DNA of 64,000 bases from Phoronis australis (taxonomy: Eukaryota; Animalia; Phoronida). The position numbers were made by a program, and so were the translations under genes. The stretch covers positions 770,343 to 834,342 of the forward strand of contig NMRA01000019.1 in NCBI GenBank assembly GCA_002633005.1. Direction: 5' to 3'. The notes under the pieces are model-generated. The model had not been told where the DNA came from. It was given only the letters and a program-made list of their open reading frames with translations, and made no database searches. Shown piece by piece: positions 13,016-63,710 of the stretch. The stretch's first letter is position 1. The number at the start of each line of letters is the position of its first letter.

Positions 13016-13754
13016 TTATTTCTGGGAAACATTCATAAACACTTCAATCTCTTTGCTGTTACATTTGGTGCCTAAGCTGTACCGAATATCACTTTTAAAA
13101 GCATCCTTAAAGCATCCCTTTTTGATAAAATTCCAGGAATTTCGTTCATTTCCCTTGGTTTCCTTCGATATCCTGGGTTTCTTTCCCCCCGCTCTGTTTA
13201 CCCGGCGGCGACGTCGGCGCCTTGTGCTTGCGGAACTTGACTGTGAAGTACTTCCGTTGTCTTTGGATTTCGACGAGACTTTCGCTCGTCTCTGTCGTCG
13301 CTGTTTCTTCGTTACTGACTTACTCGTTCTTTGGCTCCTTTTCTTGAGTGGACTTCTGGAGGAGAATGGAGTTTTTCTCCTCTCGGACCAAGTAGAACCG
13401 CTCTTTGATTTGCGTTTCTTGCCCATTGATTTTCGAAATTTAACTCCTTGATTAGTGCCCTTGCTTGCACCAATTTTCCTACGCCTGTTTCTTGATCGTT
13501 TGGCGCGACCTTTTTCAGCCACCGGACTCGATGATAGCTTACTCTTGCCAGGTGACCTTGATTTACGGGATCTGCTACTTCGGCTTCTTTTTTTTGACGA
13601 TCTTCGACTGCGACTGCCACTGCGACTACCTGGAGTTTTCCCTCGGTTGTTCACGGGACACTCACCGCAACACTTCGACTCTTTTCCTTTGTGACAATAG
13701 CAGCCGCACTTGCGACAACGGTATGGATTATTTCCCCGTCTGCCAGATGACGAC
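13016..13754 (-). CDS. Basic Arg/Lys/Ser-rich, Cys-cluster protein (protamine-like candidate), exon 2
   Basis: Polypyrimidine TTTTTTCCCAG acceptor, phase 2; open for 246 codons; CRKCGCYCHKGKESKCCGEC then RS/KS/RRRR tracts. Confidence 0.72.
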
Positions 13755-13816
13755 CTGGGAAAAAAGGAGAGCTTGTTTTTTTGCTCAGAAAGTAATAAAA
13801 TTAACATCTACTACTA

Positions 13817-15775: not shown

Positions 15776-16099
15776 AAACTAGCTGGCTGGCTAAAGATTG
15801 CTCCACAACTTTAGCAACACAATAAAAATAGAACACCAATCTCTCCAACACCGGTAAATAATTTAGGTTACTCAAGGAAGGATGTAGTTTTTAACGACAC
15901 TAATTTTGTGTCAGATTTTATTTGGTCAGATTTTTGCCCATATCGGTGCAAAGCTGCATATTTAATATACAGCTTTCCACGTAAATCAATGCAACCTGTA
16001 ATTTTTGCAATAAAACTAAAAGAAAAAAAGATTTAATGACTTAATCAATTCGAAATACAAATCGTTACAGTACAACTAAGTGATAGAAACAACACGTAC

Positions 16100-16227
16100 C
16101 GTTTCTTTTGTTTTTTTCTTCTGGGTGATTTGGAAACTTTCTTTGCAGTTTTTGTCTTCGATGTCTGAGTTGCACAATGATTTGTCAGAACAGCTTCATG
16201 AGACCCACAGCCTTGAGTTACTTCCAT
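16100..16227 (-). CDS. Basic Arg/Lys/Ser-rich protein, exon 1
   Basis: First ATG after an in-frame stop; MEVTQGCG...KSPRRKKQKKR; CG|GTACGT phase-2 donor fits the exon-2 acceptor; spliced product 288 aa. Confidence 0.68.
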
Positions 16228-18798: not shown

Positions 18799-18849
18799 AT
18801 GAAGAAAGGGATTGGACAAATGCTGTTTTTGGTATTTTTACTAGTTTTG
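18799..18849 (+). CDS. Delta-like giant gene exon 1 (signal peptide)
   Basis: MKKGIGQMLFLVFLLVL|GTAAGT, phase 0. Confidence 0.8.
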
Positions 18850-24800: not shown

Positions 24801-27800
24801 TGCAATGCATCTAACTGTGATGTTGTGGAGACTCCATGCAGTCACGATCCGTGTAAAAATGGTGGAACCTGTGTCATCAAGTCGTCGACAACCTATGCAT
24901 GTTCTTGTCCCGCAGCATGGACAGGAAGTCAATGTCAAACTGCTTTTGTGAATATGTCATGTAGCGACATAACATGTCAAAACAAAGGAAGGTAAGAAGT
25001 ACTGCAAGTGTACTGCTAAGTGATAGAATAGAAAACTTTCAATTAATTAGCAACATGGCGACTCGCGGAGAACAGATACTAGTGGCCTCTAGAGGATGAG
25101 GACCGAGGAGGCAATTTAAATTTTGTTAAAAAACCTTCATGTGTAATCACATATAATGCAAAAGCGTGTTTTTCACGAACAAATTGAAATGTTCCCTTCA
25201 CCACCCGCTGCGAAGATAAAGTACCTTCTCATGCAGCCACATGGCATTAAGTGACCAATCGCATGTGAGCAGCCTTCATTGCTGAAAATTTTCCTTTACA
25301 GCGTGTGTCAATCAAACTTGGAGACCTTTTTGCTCTGTTGCGATTATTTGTGCGCAGCTACTTAATCTCTTTATTCATGTTCAGTCACTAAAGACATTTA
25401 AGAACCAATCAAAAATCTCTACCAGTTGAGATGGTGAACTTGCTGAATGAATTCCAATCAAGTGTGCCCAGTGTTAAAATTCTATAATATGGTTTCTTCC
25501 ACAACAGCTCAAATCAATGCCAAAAAGGGTTAAGTATTTTATTTGCCAACGTGTTTTCTGTTCCTGATGTAGAGCACAGTATAGTTGAATATCATAAACC
25601 AAGTGAAAAACTGTAGAAATATACCTCATATCTGAAGTTTTAAGTATTATTATTTAGTGGAAAGGAGTTTTCAAAACGTTCTTGACAAAGCATGCCTCCT
25701 TTTTATTATCGCAAGAAGTAGACCTAGCACATTGCCCTTGTAGAAAATGTGACCTTTGACCTTGATGTAAACAAACCAATGGCAATTTCAAGCCGCAGCC
25801 TGTCTGACTTCTGTGAGCACATACGCATATATATTATTAGGGGCGGAGAATTTGGAAACTGTATTGGGATGAAACTGTTTTATTTAGTCTGTATTTCAAA
25901 AATAGTGAATCTGACAATTTTTTTAGAAGCTCTTGCAGTATTAGAGGTGAATAACTCTCATGTTAGCATCCCGAAGAAGTAGATTTGCCACGATCTGTTT
26001 AAAATGTATTTTTTACTAGTTTTCGTGCTCCATGTCTTTTTAATACTGTAATAACAATGTCAATTTATTATCAAAAAAAGTTGCTTGTGATAAGCTTTCG
26101 AGCCACCGTAACAATGATTCTGGACAACCCTCCACTGCATTTGTTAGTAGACCTGTAGTGCTTTCACGCTGTAGTGAAATGAAGCTAATTCATCAAATTC
26201 CACGTTGCGTACGTGTACGTGAAGGAACACCTGATTAAGCTCCAATATATGATGAATAATTTAAAAACGGAAACGTGTAATTCTTGTTTTCTTATAGTTG
26301 TGTTATGGTTTCTGGCAAGGGGCCAACATGTGATTGCCCGAAACAGTGGACAGGCATGTTCTGTCAGACTGATTACGACGAATGTCAGAGCAAACAGTGT
26401 TTGAATGGGGGTACGTGTGTCAACTTGGAGGGTGGCTTTCGCTGCACCTGTCCACATGGTGAGTCCTTTTTCTTTATGTGTCTAGTTCCTAGCTCTGTTT
26501 TAATCTTAATTATGTTTTGATGCTGTTTTTGGAAGAGCTGACTGCTAGCCTTGGTACAAAGGTGAGCCGGGAGTATACTGCTTTGGACTGATGTGGGTAA
26601 AAGGTGGAATAACTAAAATGTGACCTAAGTTATTGATTCTTCTTTCAGCGAGCAAACTTGGTTACTAGTAGGCAAAAGATGTTTTTAGTCAATGATTCTG
26701 AAGTTAATTTTGTGTCGCCATCACATGCATCAACTTCGAGAACCAGCTCCACCCATTAGCCACTTTTTAAGCTGATTCTTCAATAAACTGTTCTCTATTC
26801 AGAAATGTTTGTGCAATTCAAAACAAATATGACAATTGTTTTCAGTTTGCTGTAATTTTTAGCAATTAATTACTGGTAAACTGTATTTCTTAGCAAATTT
26901 TACTGTGGCAAAGTAGTTTCCTAATACACGCCGCTTTACTAAAACAAAAGATTCAGAAAATGGCATCTGCACATGTCACGTGCATACTTGTTTAAGTGGA
27001 TAGAAGACTTTTTTTAAATTGTATTTGTTTTCTCCTGAATGGCCCCAAGGTAGGTGTCGTTTGATAGGCAGACTGACAAAAACTCTCATCTGGTTGGGTG
27101 TGCTCCATTTTGGTGCAAGTTTCATGGTGAGAGAAAAACAAATAGAGTTGTGGCGAATTTAAAAAGTGAGCTTTGTTTACTTTGCCACTGTTTTACCCAC
27201 ATCAACTCCTAGATGTATTTGATGTTTAGTTGTACACAGCTAGCTGCATGGTTGGGCAGCTCATGGCGTAAGTGGCAAGGGCGCCATTTTGAATGTTTAC
27301 ATTGTATTAGGGAAGAAGATAGTGCTCGTGTTTTATCCTGTGAAAGCACACCTGTGGACTTTTACCAACAATATCAGTACATGTAAGATTTACGCTTAGA
27401 AAGTTTGCTCGTCTTTCGTCAGATTATGAAGGGACCAAATGCGAAAAAGCATCCAATCCGTGCGAGTCCAGGCCGTGTAGGAATGGTGGTCATTGTAACA
27501 TTGAGTCGTCAAAGGAGAGATTCTCCTGTAGCTGTGTTGGTCGGTATGTTGGCCGAGTCTGTGAACGACTTGTAGTCACCGGTCAAGTGTACCTGAATGG
27601 CAAGAAGTCGGAGATTTCACGTCAGATGGGTAAACTGTACCAGCAGCTGATCAAAATGTGGTACAAGAGACGACCAGGTGAGTGGGCACACGAGGTGGGG
27701 GTACCTACAGGAGACACTGCGAATATGACTGACTTGTTCCAAGGGCTTGTATATCGAAGAGTCTATAGCCAAAAGTTGATCGTTTTGTCGTTTGGATATG

Positions 27801-30800: not shown

Positions 30801-31185
30801 GCTTAACAAATGTCAGCATTAAGTCTTTAGACCGAAATATTCTTATTCGTATGGGCTTCACTGATACACTGGAAGGGCAGCAAGATGCACACCAGAAGCG
30901 AGGTGTACAGTGAAGCAACAACATGAATGGGAATAGTTCATATTTTATGATAATGAGTAATCGTACAATACAGACTGACATTTAGAGAGAATACATGATA
31001 ATTAATGACATTGTAAATGTGGGTGACAATGAGCCCACTAATGTCTTCAGTGAATACATAGGTTACATCGATGGTAATGGTGGGTGACAATGATCCCACA
31101 AGGCTATGGTAACAGACGTACTGAAAATGTACAATAAATAGAGAGAGAGAGGGAGGGAGGGAGGGAGNGGAGGGAGGGAGGGAGG

Positions 31186-31223
<38 letters not shown>

Positions 31224-34200
31224 AGACTGTCATAGACTATGAGAAAATTATGTAGGGTTAAAGGATGGGAGATTTTTGAGTAATAATTGTGACCGAATAA
31301 AAGAAATGAAGATAGGTGTCAATGTCAGCTCTCTGCCCAAAGGGATCACATGAATAAGTTGTTATGAGAAGTAGGTCATACGAGTGATAAAATAGGTCAG
31401 AGTCGCTTATACAAAATGGGTCATTTTGTTCACTATAATAATCATATACAAAATTTTTTGATTGATTATTGTGTGGTGGAAGACTTGTACTTGAGTTTAC
31501 TTTTTCTCAGTGTGGCCATATCATATGTGCTTTGTATTGATTTCGTAAATTCTGCAAAGCATCACATCAAGTACATTGAAAACTGACCATGGTTTGAAGT
31601 TTGTTGTGATAAAGAATAATTTGTATCAACTTGATTTGTTCAATATGATGCTTAAAGCTTAGATTCAGTGAATTTGATTCATATTTTCACCTTTTCTATG
31701 AATACCATTCCTTTCTTCATGTTACAGAAATGATGTCACTAAAGTAACTTACCGCCTCTTGATCAACGGTATTCCCGTCGATTCGGAACAGGTGAAGAAG
31801 CCCTCTGTCAGCGAGTATCAGACCTACTTGAATGAAGTGACCCGTCCTAATGGTCAGCCGTACGCAGTGATGAACCCTGACCAATTCAATCTGCTTCTTT
31901 ATCGGTGAGCGCGGAGTGGACATCTGTCCTGTAGTTTTCATGAGCAATTTGTAGAATTTCATCAAAATTCATTTAGGTCCCTTGACGTAAATGTGGATAT
32001 GAAAACCTGATTAAAATAACGAGGCAAAATAACTGATTTTTTTACTCTGATATATTGATTTTTGCCAAGAAGTGGAATTTTTATTGAAAGAAGACCAAAC
32101 ATTTACGGAAGGGCATACAGTCATGCATGGATGCATTGTTCACTTAATTCTACTGGCCATCACTTAGAAAAAGTTTTGAAGTTACACCATCTCTTTTCAA
32201 AAGGCCTAGATTTAAAGTTTTGGAGGGCCACACTTTTCACTTAAATAGTATTGTACGATGTACTTGATAAAGGGGCTCAAATGCAATGTTTACCCAATAG
32301 TGAATTGATGTTTTTAAAAGTTTCTTATCAGAAAAGCCCAGAATAATGTTGTAGGAGACTGTGCTGACACATGAAGGATATACTTCAAATTGTTTAAAAT
32401 TTTGTTTATTTACCCTTCTCCAAAGTATGTTCACTGTTTCACAGTCCGAAAATGAGTGCTTCAAAGTCTGTGTAGATTGTCCACAAAAGGAGCATGAGTC
32501 GTAGTTTGCAACTAGTTAGTTTTTAAAAGAATTCGTCGTCAAAATTAACAACTACTAAAACGAGACTATTATATTCCATTAAGGCAGCTTTGATACCTAA
32601 AATATCTCTGATAAATGTGCAACTCCAAATATTTCCCTCTGGAGGAAACAAGTTCTTAAGAAATACTATGCCTCCATAGAACCAGTTCTTGTAAAAATTG
32701 CCTTATCCCCCCGGCTTGCGGGTCACTGCTCAACCATAAATGTAGGTAAAGTTTTACAAACTATCATCAATGTGATAGCCTTGTTCAATGCCTAGCAATT
32801 TATAGGGAAACTCACTTGAGATCAAATTTTCTTTTTTCATGGGCATTGTTGGTTTAGGTTTTACACAATATTAAAGCAACTAAAAACAATGGAAACCATG
32901 AATTTTCATAAGATTTGTTTGCAAAAAGGATAGGATGACAAAAAGCAAGCAATAAATATTTTTGGCTTATAAATCATCCTTCAGCTCAGTAATTTATGTC
33001 AAACCAGAGTTTGATTCTGAAGAAATTTTTATTGACTGTTGTATGTACTTAATTCATATCCCAGGTTACCTACAGTTTGTCTAGTAGCTGGAATGTATTA
33101 AATATTATGGGTTTTCATTTTATTTTCACTCAATGGTTGTTTGTGTCATCCTTTTCCAGACAGCTTCATTTTGACGTCAATTTCAAAGGCAGTGTTTACG
33201 AAGACGACTATTCCAAGTTGGAGAAGGCATTCTTGAACACATTCCTTGTCAAGTATCCTAGTGAGTATAGTTACACACAGTCATTTCATTGTTGATTTGA
33301 ATGCAGAAGTGTTACTATAGAATCTGATGCTACTAGCATTAATTTTGGAAAAAATGTTGAATTTTTCTTTAAAAAACTAAGCTAACAACTTATCAGTGAA
33401 TCCGTCGTTAACAGGTAGGCCCAATTTGAAATATTTACGCGTTCATTAAAATATAAATCTTTTTGCCATGCTTTAAATAACAAAACAAAGTATCGGTCGT
33501 GATAAACTTAATGTGAATGTGGTGTTCCTATGGTATTCAAAATTTTCCAAGAAACTGCAGTGTCAAGCAGGAATTGATGAATCAGTCAACATCAAAAGGC
33601 AACGTATTACATCCACTGTTAACTTGTTATAAAAGTTGGTTAATATCTCTATACAGATGGTTCTCACAATAGAGTGTGTAGATTAGCAAACTCTATTTGG
33701 GCTTAGGTAAATCTATTGTTATTGCCAGTGGCTAACTCTGCTATTCTGGACTCTACGACTTGACCAGTAACATGTTCAGGTTTTGTCCAAGTGTGGCAGA
33801 AGCTTTGGAGCAAATCAGAGGAGAAATATTAAATACATTAAATACATCTTTAATCGTAATGCATTTTGATTTTTTGTAAAAATATAGCTACAATTTATCT
33901 CTGATTGCTTACAAAGTTACGCAACTAAACTTTTAATAAAATCTTGTATTGTATATGACAGGTGTTTTTCTTTTTCTTCAGAACGTAAGGGCTGTAACTG
34001 TGTAGAGTTTGACATCAAGCAACAACAGGTGTTTACAGACGTATTTGGGTGAGTTTTCTGTCACCATCTTTTGCTGTATGATATCAGCTTATACACCGCA
34101 GACATATGCTGTATGATATCACTCAGTTTATACACACTGTCAGTCACATGAGAAAATTTCACTGAACATTAGGTAAGTGTAGTTGTTGTCTGGCGTGATA

Positions 34201-37200
34201 TCTTTTCTTCATATTCCCTCTCGTTGTCTGCCTTCTCCACTGTCTTCGTTCTAGCTTACAAAGTGACCACAGGTTCCCAATTTTGTTATTTTGTGGTTGT
34301 TTTTGTCAAGTTTCAACTCATAACAGTTTCCAGTCAAATTTTGTGTTTATTGTGATAGATAGTTTCACCTTCTTCTCTTTCACATTGCCAGGCCCAAGTG
34401 AGTGTCCGCTTCTATCTTTGCCAATACTAGGAAGTCTGACTCATTTTGGGACATGCGCTCATTGACAAAAATGCTCACTCTCATCAATTTCTGTAAAGGT
34501 CTTGTTGTTTTTTTGGAAAAGCTGCACAAATGTGCGTAAGCAAGTTGAAATGCCATCATTTGCCAAGCGATGAGTAAAAAGAAAAATGATGAATCATTTT
34601 TGCTCATCTTAGGCAGATTTTCTTGTTTGGAAAAGTGAACAACTATTTAAAAGACATATTGCACCACTGACTCGATTTTCAAAAAAAAACAACAAGAAAA
34701 CAGACCAGAACCAACTATGACTTTTTTGATCATACGTTTAACGTAATATTGTTTGCTCTATATCAGGAACAAGGTAACGCGACTTCTGTACACCATGCGT
34801 ATAGAAAATCGCCTGGTGAACCCGCTCAACAACCCTGAATATCGACTGGATTTGAACGTGCTGAAAAACCACTTGGGGGGCATCGGAAACAATATGAAGA
34901 CATGGGTGGGGCTGGATCAGTTCCTCACGCCCACCTCAACCATCTACAATGTGTACTTCAAGACACCCGTCGCCGACAACGACTTGAACAAGGTCAAACA
35001 GCAACTGGAGAAGACCTACGAAAAGTTGGATCCAAGTAATGTCGTGACCTCTGACCTTTGTGTAGCCAGCCAGCTATCTGTGCATGATTAAATGCCAGAA
35101 CACAACTAGGAATTGATATGGGTAAAAAAGTTGTGAGTTTAAGAAAAGCTGGCCGTTTCAGTTTGCCACACCTGAATTAGCGTCTCTTTCATCATGAAAC
35201 TTAATCAATGGTAGCATGCCTGAGACTGAAACATTCAAATGACACCAATCTTGACCTGTTTTAAAGTAACACAGGGTCATTTACTTGCTTCAAAAATATG
35301 CTTGTGACATGTGGACACGTCATTTGCTCTATTTTGTTTGTTTGAGAAAGCCACGTCTTGGTAGATGGTGACTGTTTTGCTGAAGTGAAATTTGCTCACA
35401 ATTTTGGTTCCCTGGTAGTAAAATACTCAAAACTGGTGACAAAGTGCTGGTATCTCTGGAAATTTGTTGTGAACTGTGCACAAACTTTTGAAAGAAGAAT
35501 AGTGGCTTGAAGAATATTCAGAAACAGAAATTGGCTAACAGATGGCGCTCTTTTTTCATGGCAGTCAACGTTGATGTGTATGATCACTCAACAAATTTAA
35601 CCGCACAATAGCGGGCTAACAGGATTTGTGCACCTCTAACCAAATTAGTCGACAAGGAAGACTGCAGTTTATGACATTAATTTAAGATTTTACTTCACCA
35701 GGAATTTTTACCCAGATCATTCCAAAGTTGTGTATTATTTTTGTATTTAATATACACAGCTTTGCGCCAAGGTTAACTTTTGTGTTGCTTCTTTCCTTGA
35801 CCTAGCTCTCGCTAGATTCACTATTAAGTGACTTTTGTCTTCATTTTTTTACTGTTTTGCACAGAACATTGAGCATTATGGGAAGATGGCCATTGGGCCT
35901 CCTGTAAACTGCTCAAATATTTTGTTTTCAGTGCTTTTATTTGCTGTTCAAGTCAGTTGGTGAACAGGAGCAAACGGACAGTACCCGGAGTAGACTATTT
36001 TATTTTAATTTTTAGCCAGTGAACTCTTTGGCCCTGTTGAATCCATCTAATTTACATGACCTCTAAAATTTGTCCTAGATGACCGACGCGAATCATCGAT
36101 CACTTTGATCCTACTTGTGGTTTCCGCTCTCACTGGACTTTACGCTGTCAGTATTTTTTCAATTGCAGGCCTTAAAGGAAAGGTTCAAGTGCAGATATTG
36201 AAGCAGGAACCATACGTAACATCTGATGGGTGAGTAAAGGTTAACTGAGGCCAGTGTGATCTCAGCTGATGTCTCTACAGTAGAAAATAATCTTTCATTG
36301 GAGACTTAAATTTTTGTACTTCCTAACTTGATATTCTTTAAGAGATTTTGCTGTCAGGAGCACAAACTCAAATTAAACCGTGATTGTCATCAATTACCTG
36401 AACATTAAGTGTAACTAGGTTTCTTGGATGTTTAATGATGGAGAACAGCTGTTGCTTTTAGGGATCATTTTTAATTTCAATATGTATTACATATCGAAGC
36501 TGAGCTGTCATGTGATCTTTGACTGTACTACGGGCTGTAAGTGAACTTCCATAAATCTTTTCTCAGGAAAACGATATCATCTGTCAAATACAAAGTGTTA
36601 GTTGATGGTGTCGTCACCAATCCCAAGGTACCACCAACTGAAGTGACGAGAGTGTTGAATGAGACTATGAACATCACAGGACCAACAGACAACTCTCGCT
36701 ATGAGTTGTACACGGGTCCCCTGACAGGTGTTGCTCCTCAGCAGGAGCAGTACAAACTATATCTGAAGAAGAAGTTGAACACAGATGGGCTTGCCAAGCT
36801 GAAGGACTCTCTACTGCAGGCCTGGCTAACGCAGAAACCCAGTAAATTGTTTACATACTTGTGAAATCTGCAATACTTGACTAAAACGGATCGCAGTTCT
36901 GCATTACAGGATAGATACAGTACTAAGGTCAAGGTCAATAAAAAAATACGCAAGAGAATTTTGGGACATATAAATAGCTGCTTCAATAAATTTCAACGAC
37001 ACTTTAATACTAAGGACACAAATGAATTAGACATGATGATTCTGTCACTGTTATCTTGAATTATTTTTAGTTTGCGTGAACACGACTTAATAATATACGT
37101 ATGAAATTAGGTTTCATTTGAGACAAATGGGTTTGGTTAATAAACATGCAGTTTGCCATTACATACTAAATGTTTTTAAGATAGTTTAACGTAAATGACA

Positions 37201-52200: not shown

Positions 52201-55200
52201 CCGTGAGGCTGACTATGGTCGAGTGGAACAGTCGCTCAAGAAGCTGTTCGCCAGTGTTAACCCTGCCTTGGCTACATGCAACTGTGTCTCTGTGAAGGTG
52301 GTGAATCAGACGCAGCTGGCTAATGGGTGAGTTGTACATACATAAATTACATGACTGTGTGAGTGCGTGTGCGTGTGCGTGCGTGATGAGATTTAGTTGG
52401 TGAACAACTTGCGAAGTGAGCATCATTGCCGTAGCCTAGTTTGTCTTATACAGTTGCTAATGTTGACAATGGCATCTATGAATGAATGCCTCTGTAAGTG
52501 TACTTGACAACTGTTCAGTAATAATCTAACTCCTGAACACATCTCCTGCGTTAAGCTGAACAATGGACAGGTTGAGTGAGTAATCAGTCACATTGAACCA
52601 GAAACTATCACCATGATAACAGCATAATTCAAAGCACTGGTCTTAGGTTGTAAGAATAGTACACACATACCACCAGTAAGACAAGTCTTATAACTGCATT
52701 TAACATGAAAAGTATTTTGTTTTGAAGCTCAATAAAACTTAACTAAAGGAACTTTGTGACCACCACCATTGCCATCACCAACAATGCCAACATCACCGCC
52801 GTCAACATCATTATCGAATGAATGCTTAGCCACCATCACCACCACCATCACCGTCATCATGGCCACAACTAGCATCACCTTCACTGGTATCGCCACCATT
52901 AACAGTTAGACTACTTGCGTCACTCCTACAACCACCACAGCCCTCCTTTCTACCATCACCGTCACCATGGTCACAACTAATATCACCCCCACTGACTTTG
53001 TCACGGCCACCAATAAAACTGCTTGCATTACTTCACATCTGCCAGGACCATGACCACAACTAACACCACCTTCACTGACATCGTCTTCACCATCAATAAG
53101 ACTACTTACATCACTCCATCTTTGCCACCACCACCACCACCACCACCATCTTTGCCACTACCACCACCATCATGGCCACCACCACCATCATGGCCACCAC
53201 CATCATAGCCACCACCACCNCACCACTACCACCATCATGGCCACCACTACCACAGTCATGGCCACCACCACCATGGCCACCACCACCATCATGGCCACCA
53301 CCACCAGTACCATCTTCACTGACATCATCTCTACCAACAAGACTACTCGCACTACACTCACCATCACAATCCTGCACCTCGATCTACCACCACCATCATT
53401 ATCTACTGTTTCTTACAGTAGCCATGCCATCACCGTGGATGGTGTAATTCGAAGTAGTCAGCCAGACCTTCTCTCCAACCTACTGAACAAACTGGGGGAC
53501 CAGAAGACCTGCCTCAAGGCTAACGGCTCTTTGTGTGACACCATCATCATTGACCCCAAGCACAAGTTCATGCTCCTCACTGACAAGAAAGTGGCTGACG
53601 ATGACATGGAGAAAATGAGGACATCTCTACGCAAAGCCTGGCTTTCCGTAATTCCTGATAGTATGTGTCTGTGTGTTCACATTTGCTCTATTTCATCTTT
53701 GTTTGACTTGCTTACACTGTAATTACTGCACATGTCTAAAGTATAGACAAAATGACCTGCAATTCGCCACTGTGACGGCTTGGCTGAAGTTGGAATTCAT
53801 CGCCAGAGTAGTCTCCTCTTGTGACTAATAATGATGAGGGATAAACAGGAAAGTCAACAAGGTCACTAAGGCATTGTGGGATTAGAATTTTGTCACCATA
53901 ATAGTTAGTACAAGTCATTTTTGCTGTTAATTGATTTAGTCTTCATGGTGGGGGAAATTGTATTTGTCTGATTATGTTTGTCTTGAGATTGATATCCACA
54001 ACTGTGCATCAACTGGAAAATATACATGAAACTGTTTTATTGAATTATGCCAGTGTCATCTTTCAAAACCATTTGTATTCGGTTTATGTTTTGGTGTGGA
54101 ACCTTTTGTTTTGGTTCTTTAGTGTTAGTGTTACAAAACCACAGACTATTTTTACTGGTTTGTAGTTTGCAGTTTTAACTTGACATAATTAGCGTTACAT
54201 GACACATTAAGTATTATTAGAAGGGTTAATTTTCTGTTTGTTTTTTTTCTTAATGTGTCTTAAGTTGTGCATTGCTTCTGCAGGCTACAAGACAGATTTT
54301 GATGTGCGACTGAAATCTCGTGAACCTGCTGTTGATGCAAACGGGTATGGTGAATTTGAATGTGAAACAATGGCATTTGTTGTTATTATTTTACATTCAA
54401 TAGATTGCTCTCAAGTGGTGAAAATATTCAACATTTTGACGTGACTTAATGTGACATTGTTGGCGAGAAAAGTAATTTTCATAAATCAGTCTCTGCTGAT
54501 TCAAACCTGCAAACCCCTGCGGTCACTGAGTCAGATGTTCTACCGGTGGAGTTAAACCTCACTTGATGGGTGACAGAGTATTTTAATCGTACTAGTTAAC
54601 TGGTTGATAATAGCCAAAACATGAGCACGAACTTTAAAATTAGCGCGTAAGTAAACAAAGACATATTGATCTGACATTTCGGTTTATTCACTATAAAACA
54701 TTCTCAAGACAAAAATTCACATTATTCAATCAGGTTAAACTTTTTTCTTGAGAATGGTTTATAGTGAATAAACCGAAATGTCAGATCAATATGTCTTTGT
54801 TTACTTACGCGCTAATTTTAAAGTTTGAGTTAACTGGTTATGCCACAAGTCTTGATTTTCAAGAGGTTTGTCAAAAGAATTAATTGCTGAAAAGGGTTAC
54901 CCTGTCCATGAAAGTAAACAACTTTTGATTCCTTCATCTCAGTTAATTCTCTGTTCCAAGTCAGATTTTATTTTCTTGAATTGCAGAGATTCACTGATTG
55001 GCAAACGCTTATTCACTAAATTGTATAGATATAGTGCCATATCAAACTTTTTTTGTTGGTTGATAATTCATGTCAAGCATGAATTTGATGAATCTTGTTA
55101 TATTTTGAGTGAAGTTATTTCTGAATCATTAGAACAAGAGTCAAGATATATTTCTCCTTAATATGGCTTCAAACTTCTGCCAAAACTTAATTTTTTGAAA

Positions 55201-58200
55201 TTCTTCTCATTCACCTTTAATTGGTCTAGTTTACATACGACTTCATATCACACGGTCTTGTTTCTTAGCAACAAAGTGTGGGCCCTCAGCTACTACCTGG
55301 TGACGCGAGGCCGTCAGCTGACTCCCAATGACGTACCTGTGATGACTATGTCCACCTATAATACCTACATGAACGTGAAGAATGCTGCTGGCCTACGGTA
55401 CCAGGTGATCAGCCAGAAGGGTGCGCTACCATATGCGCTTCACAACAGACTGTTCTTCTCTCGTCCTGTACTTAGAGTGGACATGGACCATCTGCAGTCT
55501 GCGATACAAGCTGCTTGGAGACAGTGGGAGGAAGGTATGGTAACATTGCTATACCTTATAAGTTAGGAGTGCCAAAAATCTTTTCCATGTGCTGCCTTAG
55601 AGTGTCCAAGTCTGTTGGTTGTCAACACTTCTACAATACATACTCTGCTAAGTATCAAGCAAAATTTTCTCAAGAATTTAGTATATTCTGACTTGTCATA
55701 CCTTGCCTTAAAATTTGACAAATTAAGGTTTCACCAATTCCGCTACATGGTGTTTTAAGAAGCTTAACCTTAAAGATAAAAATTTGTGATTTGAACGATC
55801 TTCTAGAATCATGTGGTATCCATGTTGTAAATAATATGTTAAATTGACCGCATGGATTTTATTTTTAATTAATTTGTGCACGTTTTTTCTCTCAAACAAT
55901 TGAAATGTAAGCTGAGTGATGAGGATAATTTCATACTTGCCTTCTAGTGATAGTTAATAGTTGGTTGCACTAGTGTTGCACTAACAACATCCTTTGGCTC
56001 ATTTGTCCTGCCAGGGGCCTCAATCCCTTGATTTTGGGGCTGAGCATCGGCCCCATTCCCCTCTGAAAAGAATTGACAAATCACGTGAAACTCCCCTCAT
56101 GAGGCCCAAAAATTACCCTCAAGTGATTGAAAAATTCCCCTGACTCATAGTTCGAATCACTTGTAGCTCACACAGGTGGCAATTTGAAAGAGCACAAAAA
56201 ATTAGTTTTGGATACTTGAGGCAGAGCATCTGGCTCTAAACAGGGCAGGTGGTGCTATTGATGGTGATTGGGGGGCAGAATTTTCCGCTCAAAATTCCCC
56301 CCTCAGAAGGCACCGTCAGGCACCTTTTCCTTCGGTGATCGAGGGCCCTTTACTCCATTTGTTTGAGCAGAAATAAAGTTTTATTGTTCAATACTTTGCA
56401 AATTGTTGCTTCTTAATTCAGTGATTTAATATAATGTATCTGGTGAATGATTTCATTACAACAAAATAATATTCCTTTTAATCTAAAGATAAATTCTTAA
56501 CAAAGCAGTTACTATTAATTTTATTAATGATATGCTGTGATTTATAGATGCTGGTAAGAATGGTTCACTTGTTCACATCAAGGTTTTGGGACAGGAAGAG
56601 TATGTGGATAAAACAGGGTAGGTCGAATAAATACAGAATATAAACATTACACTTTTGATTGATCTCAAGATTTACATTTTGGTTTCATTGGTGCTATCTA
56701 GTGATAGTTACTTTTTGACTGTATTGAGAACCTTTTTCGTACAAATATCTGTAAATTTCATACGTCGTCGAATGTGATCTAGGTTCTCACATACGAAGCC
56801 TGGTGGCTCACAAAATTTGCATGCCTACACTGCTTGCTGTGTGAACTGGAGCCTTCCATCACAAATGCAGTTATGGCCAGATTGTTTTTGTTACCTTTCC
56901 ACCCCGGTTTTACCTCCCTGTCTGCTGTCCCTCATTTTCATTTACATTGTCTTCTTCCAATAATATTATTCTGTGTTTCCAGCAAATCCTACTGGAAGCT
57001 GATGTATTTCACCAAGAGAGATGGTGCCTACTTCCAGTCCAACAAGCAACCCCCTGTTAGTCTCATCTCCTCCAAACTGGGCCTGCCCATGACTTACTAC
57101 AAGAAACTCTACAAAGACCTACTATTGGACCACCAGCCAAGTGGCACTGCACCATTCTCTTACCACTTTTTTATACCACTCAATGAACAACTGAGCCCAT
57201 CGCAGTACTCACGACAAAGTGACTCATTCCGTGACGCCGCTGTCCATTTGAAGTCAGGTACATCTAATTTCTTAGTTACATAGAATCGATGTATAAATTT
57301 CTACAACTCTGACAATCTGCATCTGGTTTAACGACACTGTACGTTATGAAGCACAGTTAATAAAAGTTAGACTCAAGTGAAATATTTACTGGACAAGATG
57401 TATAAAAAATCTTATTTAAAACTCTGCGAAAATATTTGCTTTTAGGATTAAAAGTGTTTCTACTTGTCTGGAGATCTTTGAGCTGTAATACATTAGCGTC
57501 AAGTTCTTGAGACTTAATTTCTATGCACTGTATGCAGTTGTCCAAATAGTTTAATACAACAAACTACTTTCTTTCTAGACCTGGGCAAAAAGAGCGACTT
57601 AAGTGCTGAAATCTTGCCAGCAGCTAAATACACTGGTCCTGAAAGGTAGGAAGTTAAACATACGTCTCTTGAACTATAAGAATCTAGCTGAAAGTTGTGA
57701 AAACTCGGCTTCATGTATGAGCTGCTAGTGGTTTACTTTTAAATTAGACGGTAAGAATCTTGATCTACTTCACAGGGATGTCTACCATCAACTTTTCCGC
57801 CTGTACAAGAATGGTGCTCTAGTCTATCCTGGTGATCACGCTGACCTGCAGCACAGCCTGATACACAGCTACTTCATACGAAACAGCGATCCGATCTACA
57901 ATGTGACCACTAACCGCAGGGGAAAGCAGCGATATGCCATGGCGTTCAATGTTTACACAGACAAATCAATACCTCTCGGAGACCGCTTCAAGTTCAGCAA
58001 GGCTATACAAAAAGCTATGGAAGTTAAATACCCAGGTGGAGCTTTTGTTCTTTGTTTTAGAGTTTGATCCATTCATCTTAAAACTAAATTGATTGTAGCC
58101 TTTGATCAAAATTAAGAAGATGTTCTTAATGTGCTTGAAATGGATTTGCATGTCGGTTAGATTTTTTGCTGTAATTTGCTTTAAGGCATTGTGGGTAATG

Positions 58201-61200
58201 TGCGCAAATGGCTCAATTCTTTTGGCTCAGTCTGTTAATAGTTACAATTGTCTAAGATATTGGGTCATTTGCTTTAAAAGTTTGTCACTTGTAAAGGTGT
58301 TGACGTGATGTTGCTGTTATCATTCTCTAATACACGACAATTAATTTCCAGAAGCCAAAGGTCAACTCGAGGTTTCCCTTGGTCGTGACGAACCCTTCAT
58401 TATACCTGACTGGTAGGCTTTACAAAGTTTTCCTTATAAGTAAATTCAATTTTACATGAAGCATTAAATTCCCTTTTTGAACTAGAATTAGTTTGTGTTG
58501 CTCTTGTTAATATGACTTTTGTGTAAATTAAGGGATATTTTACTGCAGAGTGAGACAAAATGTCATTACAAAAACCTCCCGTATCAACTCCAGATGGCTT
58601 CGGTTTCCAAATCAAGACTAAATCCAAATATCAATCTAGTCCATTGTTAAGTGTTGCCGTGGTCTGTTTTCCGGCATCACAACTCGTGGCCCATCTACCA
58701 CTGTTTCAAAAGTTACTAAATAAAAATGAGTACCAGAGAACCGACAGCTAAACAATGCATCTATTTTGACTAATTTGATCATATGTCTTTGGGGAAAAAA
58801 ATGTTCGACAACTAATTTTTTACAAGAAATTTAATTTCAGAAGCCAATCTGGTTGAAAAATAAACAGTTTTAGTCCCCGACTCCAAGATATATGAATTAA
58901 CTTTAGCCAGTGTTGTGCTGTTGTCATTGTTACTGTGGCTGTTCCAATGTATAAGACACTACACATTCCTGCTACATTTTGTTGCTTGCCTGTTCATGTA
59001 AGATTATTTTTATTTGGCTACCATTCTGTAATTGACATAGCTACTAATCTGTAGTCGTGGCTATTGCTCTGTTGGCATGGCTACCGTTCTGTAGTCATGG
59101 CTGTCACTCGGTTGACATGGCTATCGTTCTGTTCATTGTTGCATCATTTAATTCCAGTAAGAAGGTATGGAAAATATCGGCCTTTGTCACAGTTAACGGC
59201 AAACCACTAGATGGCAGGAAGGAGGTGCCTTTGAGAGCCTCAGAGCTGCAGCCACACACACCATTCAACATTCTTGATGTCATGCAGTCGTCGTCATGGA
59301 AACAATACAACTATCACATGCCTCTGTACTTGAAGGGCCAGCTGGACCCTAAACACATCAGTAAACTGGAGACAGCTCTGGAACAAACATGGAGCAGCCT
59401 GAATAGTGCGTTGCTATTGGTGACTTTCAAAATTAATGACATTAACTGTACAGCACATGCCAAAATGATCTGAGAAAATAACCTGGAATTCTCCGACCTT
59501 GAATCACCCTTCTTGACTGCAGCCACATTTCTTGTTTAAATTCTTAGTTTATAAATTTGAGCAAGATCATTTTGAAGCTTTTTTTGTTCTCAAGATGAGG
59601 TTGACTGGCATTGCTCTCTATGATAGGAGATAAGTTATACTGAATTAAAATTTTCTGGTGTCAGTTATGATTTAACGACAACATGACAATTTTGATGGTC
59701 CATTGTGATATCAGTTTTGATTATTTTTTACTAAATACAAAAAGTCCATGTACTGAAAACACACCAGTCTTATGGTCATTAGCAATAAGTGCTCAATGTG
59801 CTTGGAAATAAAGGTAACAGGTTGGAACTTCACAGAACGAAGCAACGGTAAAATAGTTCCTACACAACTTGAAAGTTGCCCAATGGCCTCTTTCACTGGG
59901 TTATATTTTCATGTTATGTTGAAGCCTTCTACCTCGTCTGTACAAAATTAATTAGTTTGTTCTTGACTGAAACTTAATAATTCGGTATTATGTCCTTATG
60001 TTTCAGTTTATCAAAACTGTAAATGCATCACTGTGAAGATATGCAAAGAACTGTTCCTCTCCCAGGATGGAAAGTAAGTTGCTCACAGGTGTCGCTGCTG
60101 TTAGGGATCGTGGTTGTCTGCAATAATGGAAAATAGACAGAATTCATGGAATCTGACTTGGTTCGCCAGATTGGAGATTTTGAATCAGATTTCTGTATTT
60201 TAGTTGTAAATTCCTTAAATTTGTTTTTAATTACCAAAAATTAACTTAAGAATCAATATGACCCATCAAATTTGATGTATTCTTAATACACTGTCAAGGT
60301 TTGTGGTAGCTGCAATTTTCCTGATGGCAAAAAATTGTCAGGAAGTGAAGAACATAGGGCGTTATTAGACTGAAAATGCTATAAAAAGATTATTAGTTTT
60401 GTTGATGAATTGTTATGAAACTGTGATGGTAAGAATTACACTAATTGTTTTGTGGTGTCTGTCCTGCAATTATGACATCATGCATTGGGGTAGTATTTAG
60501 TAGGCAGAGCATTCAAAATTTCTTGTGTAAACACTATCAATGGTTTTAAATTTGAGCTAACTAAATCTTGACGATGGACAGTTTGGATGTCATTGCATCG
60601 ACTGCAATTCGACAGTTAAGTGATTGTAAAGTTTCTTCAAATGCAAAAAATGAGTAACTTGAGTTGATACAGAAACTGTAAAATTGAGGTATAACTAGGT
60701 CAAGAATGGAGTAACTAGATCAAGAACTGCAACGGCTATGTAACTCACTGATCATTATATAGTCTGGATGTACGTAGATTTGTCATTGGAGGTGTTTCGT
60801 TTTATGAAAGTTTAATGGCTCCAAAACTATGAAGAAATCCTAGGATGTGCAGTTTTTGGAAAATAATCATCTGTGTTTGTTCTGTATTAATTTTCTACTC
60901 ATTACAAGAGAATTGCCAAAATGACTTTCCAGTTTTCAATTTTAAAAGTTATTTCTTGTTGCTACAATTGATCAAATTGTTGCAGCATTTTGTGGCTTCT
61001 GAATGTTAAGGCCTTTCCAGAAATGAAGTTGAAGTATTTTTTTATTTAATGCGCTTCATTTCTGTTATGAAAAGTGACAAAATAAATTAAATGTTCAGTT
61101 TTGTGTGATGACATAATGTGTGGTAAGAAAATGGAGAATCAATGAGTAAAGTATACCATTCTATCTGTAGGGGTTATGTAACCAAGCTGTTGGGTTTCGT

Positions 61201-63710
61201 CTCTGCACGCGGCAAGTTGATTGATGCACGTCAGCTCGACTATCTCCGCAACATCATGGCCGTACGGTTCTGGAATTTAGTGCGACAGCTGGGACTGGAA
61301 TATGCCCAGTCCAAGTTTGTACCCAAACGTTCAACGGACTCATATGATGTGATCGTCAAAGGTGATGCGAACACGGTGGACTTGACCTCATTGAAGAAGG
61401 TGTTGTTAACGGTGTGGAAGAAGAAGTTGAAGGGTGCGTGGGCTAAACTATGTTTAATTATTAGCTAATTGCATCTTGTACTGTTCACATAATTCTTTTG
61501 AACAATTCTTTTCTATATGGTCTCGTCATGTACAGAATATATACATACACAAAACGCACCAAGAGTGGCGTACATGAAGTAATATCCCACGAGACATTAG
61601 TACGCGTATCGACTGAGACGAAAGATCGAGGTTGATAATGCGGAATAATGTTGAGTGGGATATTACTTCATGTACGCCAGTTGAGGTACGTTTTGTATTT
61701 ATCCCATACTCTTAGAATTCCTATGTTTCTTTCATTTTTTCCGCAGATTTTTTAAGTACTTCACTCAGACTGTTCACATGGCGGATCACACCCTATATGT
61801 ATGTACTTGCGCGTTAGGCTGCAAGTTTTTGCTAGTAAAAAACAGTACTGTTTTAAATGTGACGATTTATTTCTTGAAAAGAGATAACAAAGATGAAAAC
61901 AAGCCAGGGTAACTTTTCATTAGGGTAACTTTTCATTGAACTTGTCACATCTCCTGAAAGTAGTTAAATAACAACAATATTTGATATTGTAGTTACCGAG
62001 GGATCGGCGCCTGAGTTGCAGACGATAAAATATTTAGCAAATGAAAACTGAGACAGAACTGTCATACGATTATCAGTCTTGTTCCAGATGTTACGATTGA
62101 GACCTGATTGTGTTATTTACACTGTCTCATGCTATAATTGTATTACTTTTAACTATTTTCCGAAAGTTTGGTGATCGAACCGGCTTACGACGTCAAGTCG
62201 ACATTGACCTACCTTTTGAACTTTTCATGTCAAAGGTCACTGTTGAAGTAGTGCGGGAGGTGAATACGGAAAACTAAATTATTACATGGCCGTATTTCCC
62301 TCGCGTATGGGTTAAAATACAAACCTAAAGTATTCAGACAAATTAATTTGGATTGAATTTCCCATCATGGTTTTTGGGCGGAAGCCGAATTCACGGTTAG
62401 AGTATAGCGTTCTCTCATGATCAAGAATGATGGGGAATTAACTGAAAATTTAGTAAGGTCGCTGATCCATTCTGTAATTAGACTAATTCTGCTGTTCTAA
62501 TAGTCATTACCTGTAGGTTTCACTGTTTACGGAATTAGTCGTCATGATGGGAAAACGATATTTTGCTCGGTTATTTTTGTCTTGTGTATTTCAACAAGCT
62601 GACCACATGACTGTGTAGAAATTGGTGTGCTTTTGATTGCTGATAAAGTATAATGAAAAATGGTAAAAGTAATACATATTATTTGCATTACTAGACACTC
62701 CAGCTATTTAGTTGCGGGTAAATTTGTAACATAAAGAAAGAGCATACCTAGTACTAGAGCACTCAGGTTCGTTTCTCTTTGAGTTGTTTCAACTTGTTAT
62801 AATGAGAGTATGATAATATGTGGCAACGCCACAATTTTTTTGACCTGTAAATTGTTTGGTAATAGAATTGTAAGAGTTATAAATCATACATTTTTGCATT
62901 CCCTGCAGATGAGAACAGCACTGTGACATTCTCCAACCTACAGAGTTATTTCGGCAACAATGGTGAACGTCTGCTGAGAATCTCTTACGTTGTGCAGGAC
63001 GGTAATGGGACCAAGCAAATACCTGTGAACACTGAGTCGCCACGGACGACAACCCTGATCCGCGCAGCCGAGGATAACAAGCTGCAGGTGGGTGATGTGT
63101 GACTTCATGAATTAAGTCACCATGTTGGCAATATATTCTGCAAATTACACATTTTGAGGTCAGCATTGTCAACCAGCTTCTTAGTGTTGAGCAGCCATTC
63201 TGGGGCACGATAATGTTGGTCGTGGCAGTCATAGACACGTTATTGCAAACTCTGTCCTGTTTTATAATCACCCAATGAAATAGTTGGTCATAGGAACGAG
63301 AATTTGGCATTTCCAACAGTCATTTATCATACATGAATAACAACTTCCATCATGATTATGTCTAAATGTTACGTCTCTCACGTTTCTTCTGCTATTTTTG
63401 ATTGGGCAAGCCACAATGATCATTGTGCAAAGGTTATATTAATATGTTTTGCTGACTGATGATGCCATTTATTTCAAATTTATAACTAACACTTACACTA
63501 TTCACTTGACTACTTGATATGGTTGTAAGATATTTACGAGTACATGGCTCATCATTTGCCCTAATTAACCCCAGGTAAGCTTCCACGATGGTGGGCTGGG
63601 TACAGAGAAGAAGAGTCTACACACACTGACAGTGGACAAGGCTGTGTACTACAATAACAGGAAGGGTCTGGAGCAAGCACTGATGGCATCGTGGGCCAAG
63701 AACACAACGT
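18799..63710 (+). CDS. Giant secreted/membrane protein: signal peptide + MNNL/C2-like + truncated DSL + 4 EGF + >=18-19 tandem ~110-aa alpha/beta (SEA-like) repeats; 43 exons, 3'-incomplete
   Basis: 43 GT-AG exons with continuous phase, 7105 nt summed; exons listed separately. Confidence 0.88.
19647..19834 (+). CDS. Exon 2 (MNNL N-terminal part)
   Basis: GGTFVVKMVEQKNPTGRDYHGNCCDGDEKNGFCQTPC. Confidence 0.85.
20708..20879. mobile_element. Short MITE with perfect 15-bp TIRs
   Basis: CATGCGTGCACCCAG / CTGGGTGCACGCATG; flanks TGATA / TGATC (imperfect 5-bp TSD). Confidence 0.8.
21302..21419 (+). CDS. Exon 3 (MNNL)
   Basis: ...ITFPTDNPGFTNPVYGKIKRWR|GTAAGT. Confidence 0.8.
21848..22011 (+). CDS. 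Exon 4 (MNNL/C2 C-terminal part)
   Basis: YNVTISATLRKD...LIDTF...LEGRRPNNAS; phases 0/2. Confidence 0.8.
22667..22816. mobile_element. GC-rich MITE dimer, same family as 2081-2217
   Basis: Reverse-complement similarity to 2081-2217. Confidence 0.7.
23171..23251. mobile_element. GC-rich MITE monomer, same family
   Basis: CATGGGCAGCGCACC ... GTGCTGCGCCGCCTATG. Confidence 0.65.
24737..24991 (+). CDS. Exon 5 (half DSL + EGF1 + start of EGF2)
   Basis: CNPNFYDRDCSRYC; CSHDPCKNGGTC...CSCPAAWTGSQC. Confidence 0.9.
26298..26458 (+). CDS. Exon 6 (EGF2 + calcium-binding EGF3)
   Basis: [41 protein letters not shown]. Confidence 0.92.
27423..27677 (+). CDS. Exon 7 (EGF4 + start of repeat 1)
   Basis: CESRPCRNGGHC...CSCVGRYVGRVC then VYLNGK...LIKMWYKRRP. 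Confidence 0.92.
27997..28362. mobile_element. hAT-like element end, truncated at an assembly N
   Basis: CAGGGCTTGG terminus with repeated TTTCCGC subterminal motifs; absent from the duplicate flank copy at ~28527. Confidence 0.6.
29093..29163 (-). mobile_element. tRNA-derived SINE head
   Basis: Minus strand: GGCAGTGTAGCCTAGTGAG (A box)...GGTTCGAATCCC (B box); no clean acceptor stem. Confidence 0.65.
30685..30751 (+). CDS. Exon 8 (small repeat exon)
   Basis: LANCKCITHEPVSVEDYIDSKG; phase 1/2. Confidence 0.85.
31141..31222. repeat. (GA)n/(GGGA)n microsatellite with an internal N
   Basis: Direct observation. Confidence 0.95.
31728..31904 (+). CDS. Exon 9
   Basis: NDVTKVTYRLLINGIPVD...; phase 2/2. 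Confidence 0.85.
33160..33260 (+). CDS. Exon 10
   Basis: QLHFDVNFKG...KLEKAFLNTFLVKYP. Confidence 0.85.
33982..34048 (+). CDS. Exon 11
   Basis: RKGCNCVEFDIKQQQVFTDVFG. Confidence 0.85.
34767..35035 (+). CDS. Exon 12
   Basis: NKVTRLLYTM...KVKQQLEKTYEKLDP. Confidence 0.88.
36169..36229 (+). CDS. Exon 13
   Basis: LKGKVQVQILKQEPYVTSDG. Confidence 0.85.
36567..36841 (+). CDS. Exon 14
   Basis: KTISSVKYKVLVDG...KLKDSLLQAWLTQKP. Confidence 0.88.
37288..37351 (+). CDS. Exon 15
   Basis: LSKESTDVEITSVKPMVNNRG. Confidence 0.82.
37847..37977 (+). CDS. Exon 16
   Basis: EMIYKVNYFLKVNGKRVD... Confidence 0.85.
38497..38692 (+). CDS. Exon 17
   Basis: ...KLKTSLKKAVEAKYPRLGKVKITTLPQQEYTTSDG. Confidence 0.87.
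39607..39878 (+). CDS. Exon 18
   Basis: KTVHKLLYKV...KLESDIKNTITKFMP. Confidence 0.88.
40040..40105 (-). mobile_element. tRNA-derived SINE remnant
   Basis: Minus strand: TGGCTCAGTGG A box and GTTTCGAGTCCC B box. Confidence 0.55.
40412..40475 (+). CDS. Exon 19
   Basis: LKGKNVKITIKGQEEYLDKNG. Confidence 0.85.
41006..41262 (+). CDS. Exon 20
   Basis: NKRSRLYYTVDADGK...KFEKAIKDAWLKFKP. Confidence 0.88.
41857..41920 (+). CDS. Exon 21
   Basis: LKNRNISVEVNSVKKYLDSNG. Confidence 0.85.
42223..42488 (+). CDS. Exon 22
   Basis: KERWKLSYYVMDNGK...VEQALTEAWSQKHP. Confidence 0.88.
42737..42794 (+). CDS. Exon 23
   Basis: LKHLNVKIARQDEVLTENG. Confidence 0.85.
43134..43414 (+). CDS. Exon 24
   Basis: DTLWKATYFVYSG...KIAKALQMAHQATMP. 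Confidence 0.87.
43863..43905 (+). CDS. Exon 25
   Basis: VTLKIVTDELYAEG; phase 1/2. Confidence 0.8.
45065..45333 (+). CDS. Exon 26
   Basis: QKLLYRLIYFVMDKKG...KFAGALRNHW. Confidence 0.87.
45833..45887 (+). CDS. Exon 27
   Basis: GDFKFSFMSQEEHVTSKG. Confidence 0.82.
46368..46648 (+). CDS. Exon 28
   Basis: ETLYKFPFVVFENDRPLDG...QLSKVLKDYWLLVYP. Confidence 0.87.
47959..48025 (+). CDS. Exon 29
   Basis: LKNCSCLEIDMKNVQSGKDVKG. Confidence 0.84.
48438..51949. mobile_element. Degenerate ISL2EU-like DNA transposon (3.5 kb) in intron 29
   Basis: AT|GGGGCTATTCGGA...TCCGAATAGCCCC|AT; subterminal GTACTAGTGGTGAT mirror; minus-strand SAP-like and YqaJ-like remnants. Confidence 0.8.
49774..51857 (-). pseudogene. 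SAP + YqaJ/lambda-exonuclease-like transposon ORF, disrupted
   Basis: QLNLRLRKKGVSMRGSKHDLIQR|gt (~51830-51764); TPAVLHGTMCKSVALEK (~50240); SGLSVYPDELYLTATQISLVGED (~50150); LKLKKT*SH; VFTFKGLIVDVI...KLDLFY; stops and frameshifts present. Confidence 0.7.
51994..52326 (+). CDS. Exon 30
   Basis: KPLYRYLYSLKVNN...RVEQSLKKLF...TCNCVSVKVVNQTQLANG. Confidence 0.88.
52757..53400. repeat. Degenerate (ACC/ATC)n low-complexity tract with an N at 53220
   Basis: Direct observation; produces poly-T/P/G/V ORFs in several frames. Confidence 0.9.
53419..53660 (+). CDS. Exon 31
   Basis: SHAITVDG...KMRTSLRKAWLSVIPD. Confidence 0.83.
54284..54344 (+). CDS. Exon 32
   Basis: YKTDFDVRLKSREPAVDANG. Confidence 0.84.
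54630..54825. repeat. Near-perfect ~80-bp inverted repeat, possibly Penelope pLTR-derived
   Basis: AACTTTAAAATTAGCGCGTAAGTAAACAAAG...TTCTCAAGA / TCTTGAGAA...CTTTGTTTACTTACGCGCTAATTTTAAAGTT. Confidence 0.85.
55269..55534 (+). CDS. Exon 33
   Basis: NKVWALSYYLVTRG...HLQSAIQAAWRQWEE. Confidence 0.87.
56012..56349. mobile_element. Degenerate hAT-like MITE
   Basis: CAGGGGCCTCAAT start and ATCGAGGGCCCT end; internal AATTCCCC repeats. Confidence 0.45.
56548..56617 (+). CDS. Exon 34
   Basis: AGKNGSLVHIKVLGQEEYVDKTG. Confidence 0.85.
56983..57257 (+). CDS. Exon 35
   Basis: KSYWKLMYFTKRDG...SDSFRDAAVHLKS. Confidence 0.85.
57579..57645 (+). CDS. Exon 36
   Basis: LGKKSDLSAEILPAAKYTGPE; phase 1/2. Confidence 0.78.
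57776..58035 (+). CDS. Exon 37
   Basis: DVYHQLFRLYKNG...KFSKAIQKAMEVKYP. Confidence 0.86.
58352..58412 (+). CDS. Exon 38
   Basis: AKGQLEVSLGRDEPFIIPD. Confidence 0.8.
59158..59405 (+). CDS. Exon 39
   Basis: KKVWKISAFVTVNGKPLDG...KLETALEQTWSSLN. Confidence 0.87.
60007..60073 (+). CDS. Exon 40
   Basis: YQNCKCITVKICKELFLSQDGK. Confidence 0.83.
61171..61433 (+). CDS. Exon 41
   Basis: GYVTKLLGFVSARGKLIDA...SLKKVLLTVWKKKLK. Confidence 0.86.
61545..62316. mobile_element. Non-autonomous element with a palindromic head (Crypton-like)
   Basis: Hairpin TGGCGTACATGAAGTAATATCCCAC / GTGGGATATTACTTCATGTACGCCA around a GAGACGAAAGATCGAG loop; TTATCCCATAC at ~61699 mirrored by GTATGGGTTAA at ~62305. Confidence 0.55.
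62909..63087 (+). CDS. Exon 42
   Basis: ENSTVTFSNLQSYFGNNGERLLRISYVVQDGNG...; phase 1/0. Confidence 0.84.
63575..63710 (+). CDS. Exon 43 (last in window; gene continues)
   Basis: VSFHDGG...GLEQALMASWAKNTT|GTGAGT. Confidence 0.84.

Follow-up and report, generated by a model that had tools for sequence, protein, structure and literature searches.

The 64,000-nt stretch of Phoronis australis analysed here (the window) is animal DNA rich in introns, with a GC content of about 39%, and six-frame reading of it gives EGF-like and repeat-like fragments on the + strand. A sequence-only reading had described 27587..63710 as an array of SEA/ferredoxin-like units with low identity between copies, and had proposed that these form a force-bearing or cleavable stalk. 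The locus raises the question of what these units are, to which protein they belong, and whether they could bear force or be cut.

A spliced and expressed gene with a Notch-ligand-type head

Splice sites define a gene on the + strand from 18799 to 63710, with 43 exons and 2368 codons uninterrupted by a stop. Its last exon inside the window stops at 63710 with the reading frame still open, and the gene runs off the window. RNA from P. australis (three raw-read runs, X1, X2 and X3, and one contig set) was mapped over 16000-33400 and 31300-51200, and at least 21 of the 28 model introns within these stretches are found among the joints listed, which are the best-supported ones. The intron 48025>51994 is backed by a loose end with 47 reads, and the 13 introns further 3' are based on splice sites and frame. 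Thus, the gene is spliced and expressed, and the reads lie on the expected strand. Each joint is crossed by 26-77 reads in X1, 0-6 in X2 and 0 in X3; since the depth is similar across the runs, expression is strongly sample-restricted.

The protein begins with a start codon and a hydrophobic leader, assigned as a signal peptide by inspection of exon 1 (aa 1-17, 18799..18849, + strand), which has an RNA joint to the next exon (18848>19646); reads end near 18642. A C2/MNNL domain follows (aa ~31-180, 19686..24755, + strand), encoded in four exons (19647-19834, 21302-21419, 21848-22011 and the start of 24737-24991) with RNA joints. Its assignment comes from Pfam, exon 2 scoring 31.2 bits against MNNL (PF07657; cut-off 22.5, E 1.9e-07), and from a Patella protein, P0003, whose head is collinear with that of the window from end to end (aa 17-198 in the window, 15-183 in P0003); a sequence search of the MNNL exon against solved chains gave 0 matches. 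Next in the chain is the first half only of a DSL-like module (aa 182-200, 24759..24815, + strand), recognised with Pfam DSL and by alignment with the start of the P0003 DSL. It scores 9.5 bits against a cut-off of 24.2, stops half-way and passes straight into EGF1 inside one exon. Four EGF repeats complete the head (aa 206-360, 24831..27565, + strand; Pfam EGF and EGF_CA, counted by cysteine pattern), the third being of the calcium-binding type. EGF4 and unit 1 of the array share one exon (27423-27677) and its frame, so head and array are a single protein.

Other features lie beside and inside this gene. A head-to-head neighbour (13016-13807 and 16098-16318, - strand) encodes a basic protein that is rich in Arg, Lys and Ser and begins with a Cys-rich part; it has no Pfam match and, judged by composition, may be protamine- or H1-like. 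Read depth in the bin 16000-16580 is about 930x in X1, 730x in X2 and <1x in X3, with loose ends linking to about 13753. At 3963-4568 (- strand) there is a 202-codon open frame, also with no Pfam match; we take it to hold an eh1-like peptide and a Tlx/NK-like end, and a homeobox gene probably has its first coding exon here. Two intronic repeats, at 48400-51200 and 27800-28500, attract abundant reads in all runs, with many differing letters, and are likely dispersed elements; the former is read on both strands and the latter contains a ~130-base piece in duplicate, next to an N.

The repeat array and its predicted fold

In the array, 18 units are complete and measure 102-117 aa, and a 19th is present with its first third only, which gives the 19 copies of the amphipathic helix counted in the sequence-only reading. 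It also fills the region then named, unit 1 starting in exon 27423-27677 and the last exon ending at 63710, and the low identity between copies was borne out (mean 17.5%, range 3-34% between pairs). When each complete unit was scored with an HMM built from the other 17, 18/18 reached 18-80 bits and exceeded all their shuffles, of which the best of up to 200 per unit reached at most 3-13 bits, so the repeat is not due to chance. The motifs proposed for the unit hold as a consensus and not as literal patterns, KLExALxxAW occurring in 3/18 units, DxxG in 10/18 and W[KA][LI]x[YF] in 3/18.

All units lie on the + strand, and units 1 to 18 are those scored with the HMM. RNA joints support units 1 (aa 362-478, 27569..31902) and 2 (aa 479-592, 31903..34938), and RNA also supports units 3 (aa 593-704, 34939..36744), 5 (aa 816-925, 38538..39781), 6 (aa 926-1032, 39782..41165), 7 (aa 1033-1143, 41166..42394), 8 (aa 1144-1255, 42395..43317) and 9 (aa 1256-1358, 43318..45233). 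The support is RNA exon depth for unit 4 (aa 705-815, 36745..38537), whose own joints fall outside those listed, and for unit 10 (aa 1359-1471, 45234..46551); for unit 11 (aa 1472-1582, 46552..52162) it is the joint 46643>47954 and the loose end leading from 48025 into 51994. Splice sites and frame define units 13 (aa 1685-1794, 53561..55437), 14 (aa 1795-1907, 55438..57154), 15 (aa 1908-2016, 57155..57932), 16 (aa 2017-2122, 57933..59311) and 17 (aa 2123-2231, 59312..61336). Unit 18 (aa 2232-2336, 61337..63613) is followed by the first strand and helix of unit 19 (63614..63710, from the sequence model), and the gene extends past the window.

Unit 12 (aa 1583-1684, 52163..53560) contains an inferred junction, 52326>53419, and its third strand is about 6 residues short. 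The intron sequence at 52760-53418 is of low complexity, with an N at 53220, and its frame is His/Thr-rich and continues into exon 53419. This frame was considered as coding at 53054-53418 and rejected as intron, on acceptor and phase rather than on RNA; a micro-exon scan of the intron before 53419 found none. Possibly, a missed exon in 52760-53418 would supply the short third strand.

Every unit is split over two exons. A phase 1 intron follows the first helix in 16/18 units, and a phase 2 intron lies in the strand 2-3 hairpin in 17/18. Since these phases recur with the units, the array likely grew by duplication of a pair of one short and one long exon, whose limits are offset from those of the domain. 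Note that the exon pairs between 30685 and 61433 are frame-symmetric, so skipping one pair would keep the frame, create a hybrid unit and shorten the stalk; the RNA joints listed include none that skips a pair. A C-x-C (or CC) pair was also seen in the helix 1-strand 2 loop of window units 1, 2, 11, 12 and 17 (aa 402-404, 517-519, 1508-1510, 1621-1623 and 2158-2160) and in some units of relatives, and is a candidate local disulfide or cross-link site.

The predicted model of three units (pLDDT 86, pTM 0.73) has a ferredoxin-like fold, an alpha/beta sandwich with the order strand-helix-strand-strand-helix-strand, the fourth strand being marginal. The exon 51995-52324, from the unit 12 region, was also folded alone, and the strand-helix-strand-strand-helix order read earlier from the letters matches these models. 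In a structural comparison with 48,161 chains, SEA-bearing cell-surface proteins came on top, before many other ferredoxin folds, and the closest structures were the SEA-like membrane-adjacent domains of tip-link cadherins. We take 15 of the top 16 VIA rows to be SEA-bearing proteins, about 10 of them distinct. Foldseek gave no match with E <0.001 for either model, unit profiles searched by sequence against solved chains returned only matches with E >0.5, and Pfam SEA had no match in 23 window fragments, which are intron-split (E up to 1), or in 15 relatives (E up to 0.05). The ESM Atlas gave no usable match for the window exon, and only scores of at most 0.77 for a part of the relative P0008. 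As to the earlier suggestion of a likeness to the Notch HD region, no Notch NRR chain is among the best 50 structural rows, and no LNR repeats are present. By predicted fold, the units would be SEA-like, as proposed, and neither canonical self-cleaving SEA domains, which are marked by a Pfam SEA match and by motifs considered below, nor a Notch NRR.

Relatives, membrane anchor and cleavage motifs

A profile from 15 long exons was searched against 1.84 billion proteins and gave 68 matches (top E 2.7e-98 and 1.2e-74), 20 of which were looked up. The true matches that could be named come from molluscs (Potamilus, Patella, Dreissena, Haliotis, Mizuhopecten, Tegillarca, Mya and Gigantopelta) and from Owenia. 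Two matches, P0040 (a bacterial fibronectin III protein from Paenibacillus) and P0045 (a repetitive protein from the spider Uloborus), were spurious, with 0 units at >=8 bits, and were left out of the counts. Word-based homologue searches, which are weak because of length limits, gave 0 matches for a single exon, 0/7995 candidates in exon alignment and, with P0002 as query, only P0002 itself among 2174; full-length alignment of the 3600-aa proteins was set aside, its rows being scattered.

In the Patella protein P0003 (3634 aa), a signal peptide is followed by MNNL, DSL, a domain without a name, a single EGF-like module and a stretch rich in Thr and Pro, and then by 27 units, a membrane helix and a tail; this protein and P0004 carry the automatic UniRef name 'Delta-like protein'. 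Potamilus and Patella both have 27 units, and 15/27 units of P0002 and P0003 are best matches in register. This agreement between a bivalve and a gastropod suggests that the number and order of units are old. A full DSL above the cut-off is found in P0002, P0003, P0004 and P0070, as against the half in the window. An unnamed strand-rich domain of ~110 aa stands after each full DSL (P0002 ~165-275, P0003 ~225-330, three copies in P0004); it has no Pfam match in the relatives and is absent from the window protein. Among individual members, the Owenia protein (P0004) has a VWA domain (1692-1859) set into a region of units, and its three DSL blocks stand among numerous EGFs; recent block duplications of units are seen in the Haliotis protein (P0011), and the scallop protein also has a half DSL (P0070 145-170), behind a divergent C2-like head.

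A single hydrophobic membrane helix directly follows the last unit in all six relatives with a C-terminus (P0002, P0003, P0004, P0008, P0011 and P0070), which places the SEA-like units extracellularly beside the helix of a type I protein; of this arrangement the window shows the signal peptide only. The tails behind the helix carry a Y-D-x-E-[HNQ]-F-[ST]-like motif in 5/6 and FxNxxY in 3/6, one of these being a full FxNPxY, which is an endocytic signal (PMC3564534). In the relatives with 27 units, it is units 22-24 that window units 18-19 match, so the gene is expected to encode, downstream of the window, about 3-4 further units, a transmembrane helix and a short tail bearing tyrosine motifs. 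This cell-surface protein family of molluscs, a worm and P. australis appears to be undescribed. No description of an MNNL plus SEA architecture, of lophotrochozoan tandem SEA arrays or of five accession numbers was found in full-text searches of the literature, where the supplementary DSL-family tables of PMC8166818 and PMC5356439, or Pei and Grishin 2017, may include such members or arrays.

In SEA domains that cut themselves, the loop between strands 2 and 3 carries GSVVV or GSIVA (PMC6954182; PMC9478142), and furin cuts Notch2 and GPR126 in the same loop (PMC6954182). GSVV-like autoproteolysis sites, which had been suggested as something to look for, occur in 0/124 aligned hairpins (125 units from 8 proteins), the nearest being GTVVT in one Haliotis unit. 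The hairpin glycine is conserved, and the residue that comes after it is mostly K, N, E or D. The only G-S-hydrophobic run of the window (aa 1832) lies before strand 2 and not in the strand 2-3 loop; a G-S-H in unit 12, considered as a self-cutting motif, falls on the inferred junction and is no match. In 3/6 relatives (P0002, P0003 and P0008) the next-to-last unit has a basic insert in its strand 2; in P. australis that unit lies beyond the window. With this insert in the furin loop and no self-cutting motif, the array would not be serially cleavable, and one furin-type cut in the next-to-last unit is plausible. Of the cleavable stalk, then, serial self-cleavage finds no support in these hairpins, and a single predicted cut near the membrane is kept.

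A putative stalk among SEA and Notch-ligand systems

We see an even chance that this protein crosses the membrane once and that its 19 or more SEA-like units, which follow the C2/MNNL head, the half DSL and the four EGFs, make up a long stalk that stays mostly uncleaved and acts as spacer for the head. In such a type I surface protein, the SEA-like array would raise the C2/EGF head tens of nanometres off the cell. A SEA-like domain spans ~3-4 nm, and the extended stalk would measure 70-110 nm. The raised head would grip a facing membrane or matrix and the tail would couple to endocytosis; under pull, a single unit close to the membrane, cut beforehand, would come apart and release the stalk, and the remaining units would provide length and a degree of extensibility rather than cleavage sites. 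C2 domains of Notch ligands bind phospholipid (PMC8490980) and the DSL is needed for Notch receptor binding (PMC12166595); since the DSL is halved in the window, Notch activation would be less likely than tethering to a facing membrane or matrix. SEA-like domains next to the membrane can serve as proteolytic switches (PMC6586460), which fits shedding at the one primed unit. The earlier interpretation is supported in part; a force-absorbing role is kept below as a rival only.

The same head, array and tail could serve other ends. The units could be ligand-binding modules of an endocytic or scavenging receptor, like the repeats of the LDL-receptor family, with the tail motif driving uptake. The FxNxxY motifs in half of the relatives' tails, including the full FxNPxY, would suit this, as would the strongly sample-restricted expression and the diverged units in an order kept from bivalve to gastropod, which fits unit-specific tasks. 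However, such a receptor does not require a Notch-ligand head at its tip, and the tail motifs are those of the relatives, the window protein running off the window, so we consider it unlikely. Somewhat more doubtful is a long-reach Notch ligand or decoy, whose head would bind Notch on distant cells or, like DLL3, on the same cell, while endocytosis pulls via the stalk. The MNNL above cut-off, the EGFs next to it, the endocytic-type tail motifs and the full DSLs of four relatives agree with this, but the window DSL is only the half module far below its cut-off, and receptor binding requires the DSL. Moreover, the SEA-like domain of PCDH15 unfolds before the bond breaks in simulations (PMC7547225), and by analogy a long SEA chain would probably be a poor transmitter of force. 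Further down the scale we place a wider proposal, that these are lophotrochozoan long-reach Notch-ligand relatives in which a C2-DSL head on a rod of 22-27 units would reach Notch or membranes up to ~100 nm away, and a furin-primed unit near the membrane would act as a Notch-style force switch that sheds the stalk and signals into its own cell.

That same unfolding would be the working principle of a serial shock absorber, in which the units give way in turn under tension or shear and shield an epithelial surface or an adhesive contact. The closest structures are precisely the tip-link cadherin domains that unfold first in simulation (PMC7547225), and the fourth strand of the predicted model is marginal; but a shared fold proves no function, and the pTM across three units hints at packed rather than loose neighbours, which leaves this role as improbable as the force switch. 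Another alternative is about where the units come from and does not conflict with the stalk model: they could be a generic ferredoxin-like repeat convergent on SEA and not descended from it. We give this about as little credit as the Notch ligand or decoy, because SEA-bearing proteins lead the structural search over many other ferredoxin folds and because the units are extracellular, adjoin a membrane helix and have a furin-like insert in the corresponding hairpin.

Among known systems, the units are structurally closest to PCDH15 MAD12, CDH23 MAD28, CELSR1 and the ferredoxin-like domain of Nup54, at 8-13% identity and with no sequence-level match; each of these proteins has one such domain, whereas here 19 to 27 stand in tandem. 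SEA mucins of the MUC16 (CA125) and MUC1 type differ in having both a Pfam SEA match and GSVVV/GSIVA, neither of which is seen here, and the window protein has a Notch-ligand head and no mucin stretch between EGF4 and unit 1. KIAA1549 is similar in that it too is a type I protein, its predicted SEA-like domains stand in tandem, and the last of them, near the membrane, has a furin site (PMC13570299); its Pfam family has no match in the window fragments or the relatives.

With Delta, Jagged and the lophotrochozoan 'Delta-like' or 'DSL-like' proteins, the family shares a signal peptide, C2/MNNL, DSL (full in relatives), EGFs and a membrane helix, but the window protein continues from a half DSL and four EGFs into a SEA-like array of ~2000-3000 residues that is unknown in Delta or Jagged. 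Delta has been defined by a signal peptide, MNNL, a complete DSL, at least nine EGFs and no extra domain, and DSL proteins with extra domains have been set aside as 'DSL-like' (PMC5356439). The window protein has the signal peptide and MNNL, and its half DSL, four EGFs and 19 other units make it, as predicted from its sequence, not a Delta by this definition; the family would fall into the 'DSL-like' bin. In the Notch NRR, three LNR repeats cap a single juxtamembrane domain. This domain folds like SEA, and furin cuts it in the loop between strands 2 and 3 (PMC6954182; PMC6586460); here there are many units, no LNR repeats and no ankyrin tail, LNR and Notch families have no match in the window fragments or relatives, and the units come directly after an EGF or a Thr-rich stretch. 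The protein joins Notch parts from opposite sides of the contact, the C2/DSL head of the ligand and the SEA-like fold of the receptor. It also adds a divergent SEA-like family that is invisible to Pfam, with arrays of 19-27 units in an order kept between bivalve and gastropod, and whose members bear the automatic names 'Delta-like' or 'hypothetical'. If the stalk model is true, these proteins would offer a natural system for the force behaviour of tandem uncleaved SEA-like domains, and Notch-ligand heads would have been reused on mucin-like surface proteins.
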